The notes: generated by a model from the letters alone, not told the origin. Positions 26,305 to 26,323 are shown, counted from the first letter of the stretch. The stretch: 64,000 nt of DNA from Vicinamibacterales bacterium (GCA_965207675.1 CBDBMY010000008.1:8545-72544); one strand, 5' to 3'. Translations and numbers: made by a program.

Positions 26305-26323
<19 letters not shown>
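26281..26323 (-). repeat. Family A repeat, 5' half, overlapping the rpoC 3' end
   Basis: Sense strand: CAGGAGTCCGCGCCGTAGGACGCCGCCGCCTCCGGAAGAGTG. Its codons GAG-TCC-GCG-CCG-TAG give the rpoC tail ...ESAP*. Confidence 0.75.

Follow-up and report, generated by a model that had tools for sequence, protein, structure and literature searches.

A REP/BIME-like repeat family of Vicinamibacterales begins on the stop codons of ribosomal and other genes and probably spreads into (C)TAG sites

Ten copies of a repeat found in the 64,000-nucleotide stretch of Vicinamibacterales DNA analysed here (the window) begin with a TAG that coincides exactly with the stop of the upstream gene. We conclude that the repeat probably represents a REP/BIME-like family of the Vicinamibacterales (Acidobacteriota), short, non-coding and hairpin-forming, that spreads into (C)TAG sites and whose spare TAG triplets decay afterwards. 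The stop-codon register put forward in the original prediction is confirmed and is statistically solid. A profile built from ten clear copies revealed about 20 copies of the one repeat in the window (repeat matches down to E 1e-20), all on the minus strand and thus on the gene strand; profile matches on the plus strand were palindrome echoes only. The window has a G+C content of 69%, carries almost every gene on the minus strand and contains the str, S10, spc and rif ribosomal clusters, two tuf genes, alr, radA, ispDF, prs, rplI and a TPR gene, the gene identities being backed by Pfam and by synteny with annotated relatives. Homologues of its L11 and L5 assign the window to the Vicinamibacterales.

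The basic unit of the repeat is 84 nt long; it starts with TAG and ends with GGC, after which the next TAG follows. The 5' end, (C)TAG, leads into a hairpin of 12-13 bp with the loop YAGAA, followed by the spacer GGTTGGTTGGG, a second hairpin and the 3' end ...GGCGGGC. The consensus of hairpin A (module A, the REP-like palindrome) is GAGTCYGCGCCG-YAGAA-CGGYGCAGACTC, that of the spacer between hairpins A and B is CTGGCAGGGTTGGTTGG and that of hairpin B (module B, the conserved second hairpin) is GCGCCMAGCGGAGCC-NNN-GGCGACGATKGGCG, the unit having GGC as its 3' end. Since the 5' arm of hairpin A is 12 nt long, the first TAG and the loop TAG share a reading frame. Module A by itself (GGAGTCYGCGCCG-YAGAA-CGGYGCAGACTCC, 31 nt) is a short imperfect palindrome within the 20-40 nt that characterise a REP. 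The composition of the copies varies: there is a long form with an extra GCCTCC...GGAGGC segment within hairpin A (the copies of rpsQ, the TPR gene, rplK and rpsC), hairpin A occurs alone (rpsE, rpoC and the tuf remnants), and in three copies (rplF, rplE and prs; 12934-12959, 14381-14406 and 50668-50693, minus strand) the apical loop of hairpin B has given way to a nested mini-hairpin, GCGCGACCTTGCGGTCGCGTTCGGCG, which suggests a modular, mosaic evolution of the repeat.

Eleven copies had been reported to provide the stop codon of the upstream gene with their first triplet, and nine of these indeed show TAG followed directly by the arm (all minus strand): rpoB (30586-30670; a full copy of 85 nt with the loop triplet CAG, nhmmer score 66.6 bits), nusG (37686-37783; diverged), rplV (17706-17788; decayed), rpsC (16883-16988; long form), rplE (14368-14450; a variant with the nested insert in module B), rplF (12920-13027; also with the nested insert), rpsE (11773-11806; hairpin only, loop triplet CAG), rpsQ (15762-15935; two tandem copies, the first of which, 15935-15833, provides the stop while the second begins with CGG) and the TPR gene (53749-53937; again two tandem copies, 53937-53835 with the TAG stop and 53834-53749 beginning with TGG). 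The other two need qualification. The rpsJ copy (21122-21230, minus strand) does start on the TAG stop, but its 5' part resembles a second repeat family (TAG CAGCCCGTGG...), and in the prs copy (50676-50766, minus strand; module B with the nested mini-hairpin) the arm begins 6 nt past the TAG stop at 50764-50766. Placement at offset 0 was found for 10 of 17 window copies (binomial P ~3e-18), and where the first TAG is the working stop the loop triplet in the window is never TAG. A few copies came in addition to those listed before. Remnants of the arm are present at the stops of both tuf genes (TAG GCGTCCGCGCCG, i.e. the tuf stop and a remnant of the 5' arm, at 21604-21618 and likewise after tuf2 at 39056-39070, minus strand), and the stop of rplI (encoding L9) lies in the loop TAG (47553-47555) of a 5'-truncated copy (47503-47558, minus strand), the protein ending in ...SAEPA*, a fifth case akin to the four genes with a sense first triplet described below. 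The copies in the window that touch no stop are the second units of the two tandem pairs and one copy 3' of rpmD (11360-11444, minus strand; first triplet CGG), 53 nt past the rpmD TGA.

Two side observations concern these genes. The tuf genes (21616-22803 and 39068-40255, minus strand) have identical 3' ends (...IVE TAG GCGTCCGCG), and the repeat remnant was therefore part of a duplicated or homogenised segment. The L9 protein encoded by rplI (47553-48092, minus strand) has an acidic, low-complexity C-terminal extension past the Pfam domain.

In four genes the first triplet is a sense codon and translation stops at the in-frame loop TAG, and the coordinates and tails given for these in the original prediction are all correct (minus strand). 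In rpoC (...RDQESAP*) the first triplet is CAG, and the stretch CAG GAG TCC GCG CCG TAG (26305-26322; Q-ESAP-stop) consists of the 5' arm and the loop TAG of a copy of the long form, now decayed, that extends to about 26270. The rplK copy (37107-37207) is a long form with CAG (Gln) as its first triplet and the loop TAG at 37190-37192 as stop, which adds QESAP to L11 (...AGQESAP*, tail at 37207-37190). In alr (copy at 44876-44960) the first triplet is GGG and the stop is the loop TAG at 44943-44945 (...PAGESAP*, tail at 44960-44943), and in ispDF (copy at 42068-42147) these are CGG and the loop TAG at 42130-42132 (...AGRESSP*, tail at 42147-42130).

Syntenic loci in relatives were obtained via L11 (L117 and L118; 94% identity), via RpoC (L120 and L121) and via L5 (L122 (95%), L123 and L124 (92%)). 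The comparison of C-termini upheld the view that the tails are an addition: ESAP tails are absent in the orthologues, the tails are repeat-encoded and secondary, and tail-free orthologues end exactly at the position of the first triplet (L11 at 141 aa, Alr in L117, and the product of rpsE, which occurs in both states). For L11 the extra residues are real, but they are QESAP and not GQESAP as first proposed: the protein has 146 aa in the window, whereas more than 100 orthologues have 141 aa and end in ...MG(I/L)E(I/V)xG*. A 146-aa L11 ending in (Q/R)ES(A/V/G)P is found in several other lineages, and the rplK gene of L117 reads ...DIAG TAG gagtccgtgg..., a decayed copy in which the TAG is kept. 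The two states of one site are seen in rpsE, which reads ...ELTAV TAG GAG TCT GTG CCG CAG in the window and ...ELTAV GGC GAG TCC GCA CCG TAG (...TAVGESAP*) in L122.

Wherever the C-termini could be aligned (rpoB, alr, nusG and rplK in L117; rpsE, rplE, rplF and rpsQ in L122-L124), the first triplet corresponds to the native stop position. For instance, rpoB ends in ...LDEA TAG in both the window and L117, followed by the repeat in the former and by 33 nt before rpoC, with no repeat, in the latter; alr of L117 ends in ...RPDGP TAG at the codon aligned with the GGG of the window and has no repeat either; a family-1 copy is found at the rplE TAG of L122; and nusG of L117 has a copy at the same site, which points to an old, shared insertion. 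A TAG stop in the relatives nevertheless holds for some sites only, about half of the window sites being without a demonstrated pre-existing TAG target. Relatives have TGA at the same codon position in rpsQ, with spacers of 16-140 nt that contain no repeat, and in rplV they have TGA and no repeat, the C-termini not being alignable. In rplF, L122 has TGA at the same codon position and no family-1 copy, and L123 and L124 have TAG followed by a different repeat. The ispDF orthologue in L117 stops with TGA one codon earlier, and rplI of L117 ends in ...SAE TAA, two codons before the window stop and without a repeat. In rpsC of L122 there is TGA at the position of the first triplet with hairpin A directly after it (TGA GCGTCTGCGCCG...), and tuf of L122 is followed by two complete 30-nt hairpin units consisting of module A alone (TAG-hairpin-CAG-hairpin-TAG). 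The rpoC orthologues end in ...RDQVIE TAG and ...REQMIE TAG with no hairpin downstream; the Gln codon CAG of the window is ancestral, and the three codons for VIE that once followed it were replaced together with the stop, possibly via a 12-nt deletion between AGG repeats. Among these loci no pair of an empty and a filled site could be aligned on both flanks; for the rpoB-rpoC and alr-radA spacers, the L117 sequence matches the window on the coding side only.

A wider sample was collected with a 17-mer from hairpin B (the 3' module), which is uninformative on the 5' end, in one genome per species. The scan gave at least 115 loci, many of them in Vicinamibacterales MAGs and mixed with chance matches in other GC-rich genomes, and among the matches listed a profile search identified about 70 further copies in Vicinamibacterales MAGs, many of which have several copies per genome. 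About 40 copies among the matches listed have a co-directional gene ending within 250 nt. In 14 of these about 40 copies the offset is exactly 0 (the TAG of the gene is the first triplet) and in five or six it is +15 (read-through to the loop TAG), while 14 of 40 at one given offset corresponds to a binomial P of ~6e-24 under uniform placement. The repeat does not abut genes that end with TGA but lies 24-195 nt away from them among the matches listed, the rpsC gene of L122 being the sole exception. This census refutes the idea that the register is a coincidence or an artefact of ORF calling, with TAG as a common stop and the ESAP tails arising by chance. TAG does end many genes in the window (27 of the 56 called), and many TAG stops there have no repeat (rplC, fusA, rpsL, rplL and rplJ), but about 20 of 40 independent copies lie at offset 0 or +15 (P ~1e-23), the identical tails come from a homologous repeat arm (E down to 1e-20) and both Pfam and synteny bear out the genes, so we regard the probability of a chance origin as negligible.

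The two ends of the repeat resemble each other in what flanks them. TAG is present directly 3' of ...GGCGGGC in about 16 of the 18 best-preserved copies, which read ...C TAG (81 nt) TAG... and several of which are identical between genomes. The spectrum of triplets is identical on the two flanks: TAG, then CAG, then CGG/TGG. Of 18 copies, 13 (~72%) have C directly before TAG and four have G, so that CTAG heads outnumber GTAG heads, and the TAG of the head is able to pair (U-G, A-U, G-C) with CTG at the base of the stem. In tandem arrays (L038, L080 and L077) two to four direct units have one shared TAG per 84-nt unit. Four copies in the opposite orientation (L022, L037, L080 and L087) adjoin, via GGGC|TAG, the TAG with which a convergent gene ends, the convergent stop overlapping the CTAG palindrome at the 3' end of the repeat. 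As to orientation, about 45 copies among the matches listed lie downstream of genes in direct and 8-10 in inverse orientation, and about five lie between divergent genes.

TAG and CTAG are scarce in the window. Sense-strand TAG was seen 95 times where about 540 were expected (a ~5.7-fold depletion), about 30 of the 95, or about a third, being stop codons, and CTAG was seen 15 times where 178 were expected (~12-fold depletion), eight of the 15 being repeat junctions. A crude gene call of 56 genes gave 27 TAG, 26 TGA and 3 TAA stops in the window, with repeat junctions making up over half of the TAG stops. An elevated TAG usage was considered as a cause and set aside: TAG accounts for 42% of the stops in repeat-bearing loci and for 29% in other GC-rich loci, but this sample is biased by its own selection and thus uninformative.

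Two causes of the register had been proposed at the outset, insertion at TAG/CTAG targets and selection for a structure placed right after termination. The former is favoured by the TAG on both flanks, the shared TAG of the tandem arrays, the inverted copies, the fact that TGA genes are not abutted and the scarcity of TAG and CTAG in the window; rpoC, however, is not a simple case of it, and for rpsQ, rplV and rplF the closest repeat-free relatives have TGA and not TAG. The register is better explained by insertion at (C)TAG than by selection on a transcribed hairpin, which may add to the orientation bias. The repeat would insert at (C)TAG sites and leave TAG at both junctions. In a genome of 69% G+C sense-strand TAG would be rare outside stops and intragenic insertions would be purged, so that the 5' TAG of the surviving copies would serve as the stop of the upstream gene. 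A spare TAG would then decay by AT-to-GC transitions to CAG, TGG or CGG, as the triplet spectrum suggests. Once the first TAG is lost, the ribosome would read GAG-TCY-GCG-CCG and stop at the loop TAG five codons further, which would append (Q/R/G)ESAP to unrelated proteins, the in-frame loop TAG acting as a back-up stop. For rpoC and rplI the same end state was presumably reached via small rearrangements at the junction rather than by a point change.

According to the alternative, the register results from selection on the structure of the transcribed RNA, a hairpin starting on the stop being favoured there and mobility being secondary; such a hairpin might protect against 3' exonucleases, mark processing in polycistronic ribosomal mRNAs or tune termination or ribosome rescue. 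The hairpins themselves are conserved. An alignment of 45 short-form copies recovered both of them, the base pairs of module A are kept in 36-44 of the 45 copies, and hairpin B shows compensatory changes (AU 22, CG 16 and GC 3 at column pair 60/83; CG to GC in three sequences at column pair 58/85). These patterns indicate a constraint on the hairpins, either as single-stranded DNA or as RNA. The variation in hairpin A is chiefly G-C versus G-U (GC 27 and GU 15 at column pair 12/25), and such G-U-compatible stem changes, together with the compensatory changes in module B, are what selection on RNA would give. The gene orientation of all window copies and the ratio of direct to inverse copies of about 4-5 to 1 in the wider sample, the strong sequence conservation with near-identical 84-nt units across species and the presence of copies within essential ribosomal operons agree with it as well, and the same grounds have been used for RNA-level roles in the REP literature (PMC3733652). 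Selection on RNA, on the other hand, leaves the TAG at the 3' end and at the internal tandem junctions unexplained, where nothing is stopped; the inverted copies adjoin convergent stops by their other end, about five copies lie between divergent genes, and close relatives do without the repeat at rpoB, alr, rpsQ, rplV and rpoC. The fold z-scores of whole copies are unremarkable (-2.7 to +2.2), the support for the structure coming from covariation instead. In Rfam only tRNAs were found at the gathering threshold, leaving the repeat without a family, and a permissive scan of a stretch with two copies gave nothing at E<=1. An identity as intrinsic terminator was rejected: no T-run follows the hairpins, and no terminator-like site coincides with any copy in a terminator and promoter scan. 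We therefore consider it unlikely that selection on RNA set the register. In one otherwise perfect copy (L037:3621-3705) hairpin A carries its loop in inverted form, with GTTCTAC in place of GTAGAAC, the expected outcome of a flip of the palindrome via a cruciform or hairpin intermediate.

Insertion at (C)TAG might also be the work of a classical transposon. IS630 elements use CTAG as target and duplicate TA, and if the repeat were a MITE derived from an IS630/Tc1-type transposon, insertion at CTAG with TA duplication would regenerate CTAG at both junctions (C-TA-[G...C]-TA-G), in line with the 12-fold depletion of CTAG and with repeat junctions making up 8 of the 15 window CTAGs. The termini speak for something else: TAG or TA is directly repeated at both junctions, but the ends are not mutual inverted repeats as in MITEs with terminal inverted repeats, the 5' end GGAGTCTGCGCC being unrelated to the reverse complement of the 3' end GCCCGCCCATCGTC. 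Moreover, C precedes TAG in only ~72% of the copies, and a palindromic target should yield both orientations equally, yet only direct units occur in the tandem arrays. An IS630 origin is thus highly improbable.

The most plausible candidate for a mobilising enzyme is, by analogy, a RAYT/IS200-type single-strand HUH transposase that would cut at C-T^AG. Neither a RAYT nor another transposase was found in about 0.5 Mb of fetched Vicinamibacterales sequence, and a search of the fetched loci for a longer autonomous element, as 5' hairpins without a nearby 3' module, gave palindrome echoes and hairpin-only copies. The sole gene bracketed by inverted copies (in L106) encodes, as judged by eye, a small precursor-like protein and not a transposase. 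We also considered that cleavage at CT converts stops (insertion at C-T^GA, turning TGA into TAG); no right junction of the predicted form, ...GGGC TGA, was seen, which leaves this conversion unsupported. A bolder reading, which we hold to be possible though rather doubtful, is that the repeat is an actively mobile, stop-codon-homing element that integrates in one orientation at C-T^AG and uses TAG stops as safe harbours. Integration would most likely be carried out by the candidate HUH or RAYT-like enzyme, the first bases of the repeat would rebuild the stop, and two more in-frame TAGs (in the loop and, with 84 nt equalling 28 codons, at the 3' end) would limit the damage. If true, such homing would explain the spread into the ribosomal operons str, S10, spc and rif and would give REP-type repeats, the dissemination of which is poorly understood, a concrete insertion signature.

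Other repeats were noticed nearby. A second small family that also starts on the stop (TAG CAGCCCGTGGTGAAACCCCGCGTYGCACCGAGATCGGCG) is present in L123 and L124 after rpsC, rplE, rplF and rplR; the rpsJ copy of the window has the head of this second family (21206-21230, minus strand) followed by family 1, and second-family sequence is also present after the 3' TAG of some family-1 copies (L111 and L089). A third intergenic module, GGGATGCGTCGCCGCTCGAATGCAGCGG..., occupies three spacers of the spc cluster (11328-11355, 12387-12414 and 13606-13633, minus strand) and the corresponding spacers of L123 and L124. A short hairpin repeat, GGAGTTTCGCGCCAGCGAAACTCC, occurs twice at 7312-7378 and once at 37675-37698, downstream of the nusG copy.

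The findings have consequences for annotation: in the Vicinamibacterales, very abundant but little-studied soil bacteria, gene ends beside the repeat need care, and 4-5 repeat-encoded residues differ between close relatives in RpoC, L11, L9, S5, Alr and IspDF. In addition, mosaic repeats inflate the intergenic regions of ribosomal operons. The TAG...TAG flanks, the tandems with shared TAG and the inverted copies at convergent stops record the landing sites with unusual clarity, which bears on the way in which REP-type repeats spread. A literature search on MITE, IS630 and CTAG in relation to stop codons and on repeats of Vicinamibacter yielded nothing on the Vicinamibacterales family, and neither the repeat family nor its host lineage appears to have been described.

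The behaviour of the family is that of a known kind of repeat, a link that the original prediction missed. The supply of stop codons by REP termini is already published, TAG stop codons often being provided in this way (Di Nocera et al. 2013, PMC3733652), and what we describe is a new family of that kind. In the published REP survey, Acidobacteria are present only via TIR-flanked tyrosine transposases (PMC3733652). The REPs of Xanthomonas and Pseudomonas start with GTAGGAGC... (Nunvar et al. 2010, PMC2817692), which the TAGGAG... of the window repeat matches, and like these GTAG REPs the Vicinamibacterales repeat has a G+C-rich palindrome of ~31 nt with a 5-nt loop and an xTAG head, a high local copy number (about 20 copies in 64 kb), an extragenic location mainly near the 3' ends of co-directional or convergent genes and combinations with other motifs in mosaic units. 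Some intragenic REPs lie at ORF ends and encode amino acids, and the supply of both stop codons and C-terminal residues is exactly as observed here (PMC3733652). Unlike in the GTAG REPs, the head is mostly CTAG and can pair with the foot of the stem, whereas the canonical GTAG is unpaired, the unit contains a second, unrelated conserved hairpin and has TAG on both flanks, and no RAYT is linked to the repeat.

Cleavage by TnpA-REP occurs at CT beside the REP, with the GTAG head as a guide (PMC8266576). With TnpA-REP and derivatives of IS200/IS605 (PMC8266576) the family has in common the subterminal hairpins at both ends, the lack of terminal inverted repeats and the strictly oriented insertion beside a short specific sequence, and the C-T^AG at the left flank and at the right end would, as an analogy only, fit cleavage at CT. 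It differs from them in that its two hairpins are dissimilar and that no TnpA was found, and its cleavage and target choice are putative. The addition of repeat-encoded residues to unrelated, even essential, proteins recalls the Rickettsia palindromic elements and the intragenic REPs (as cited in PMC3733652). Here, in contrast to these, only 4-5 residues are added, at the extreme C-terminus, and via loss of a stop rather than by in-frame insertion. BIMEs and REPINs typically alternate in orientation, with conserved linkers between the REPs of a BIME, whereas our repeat forms direct tandems, made up of either 84-nt units or 30-nt hairpins, that share a TAG, although a mosaic composition with other modules is present. 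The MIRUs of Mycobacterium, finally, are not palindromic and contain small ORFs that overlap both neighbouring genes, but they too are short repeats between the cistrons of operons, oriented with the genes and overlapping their stop codons.
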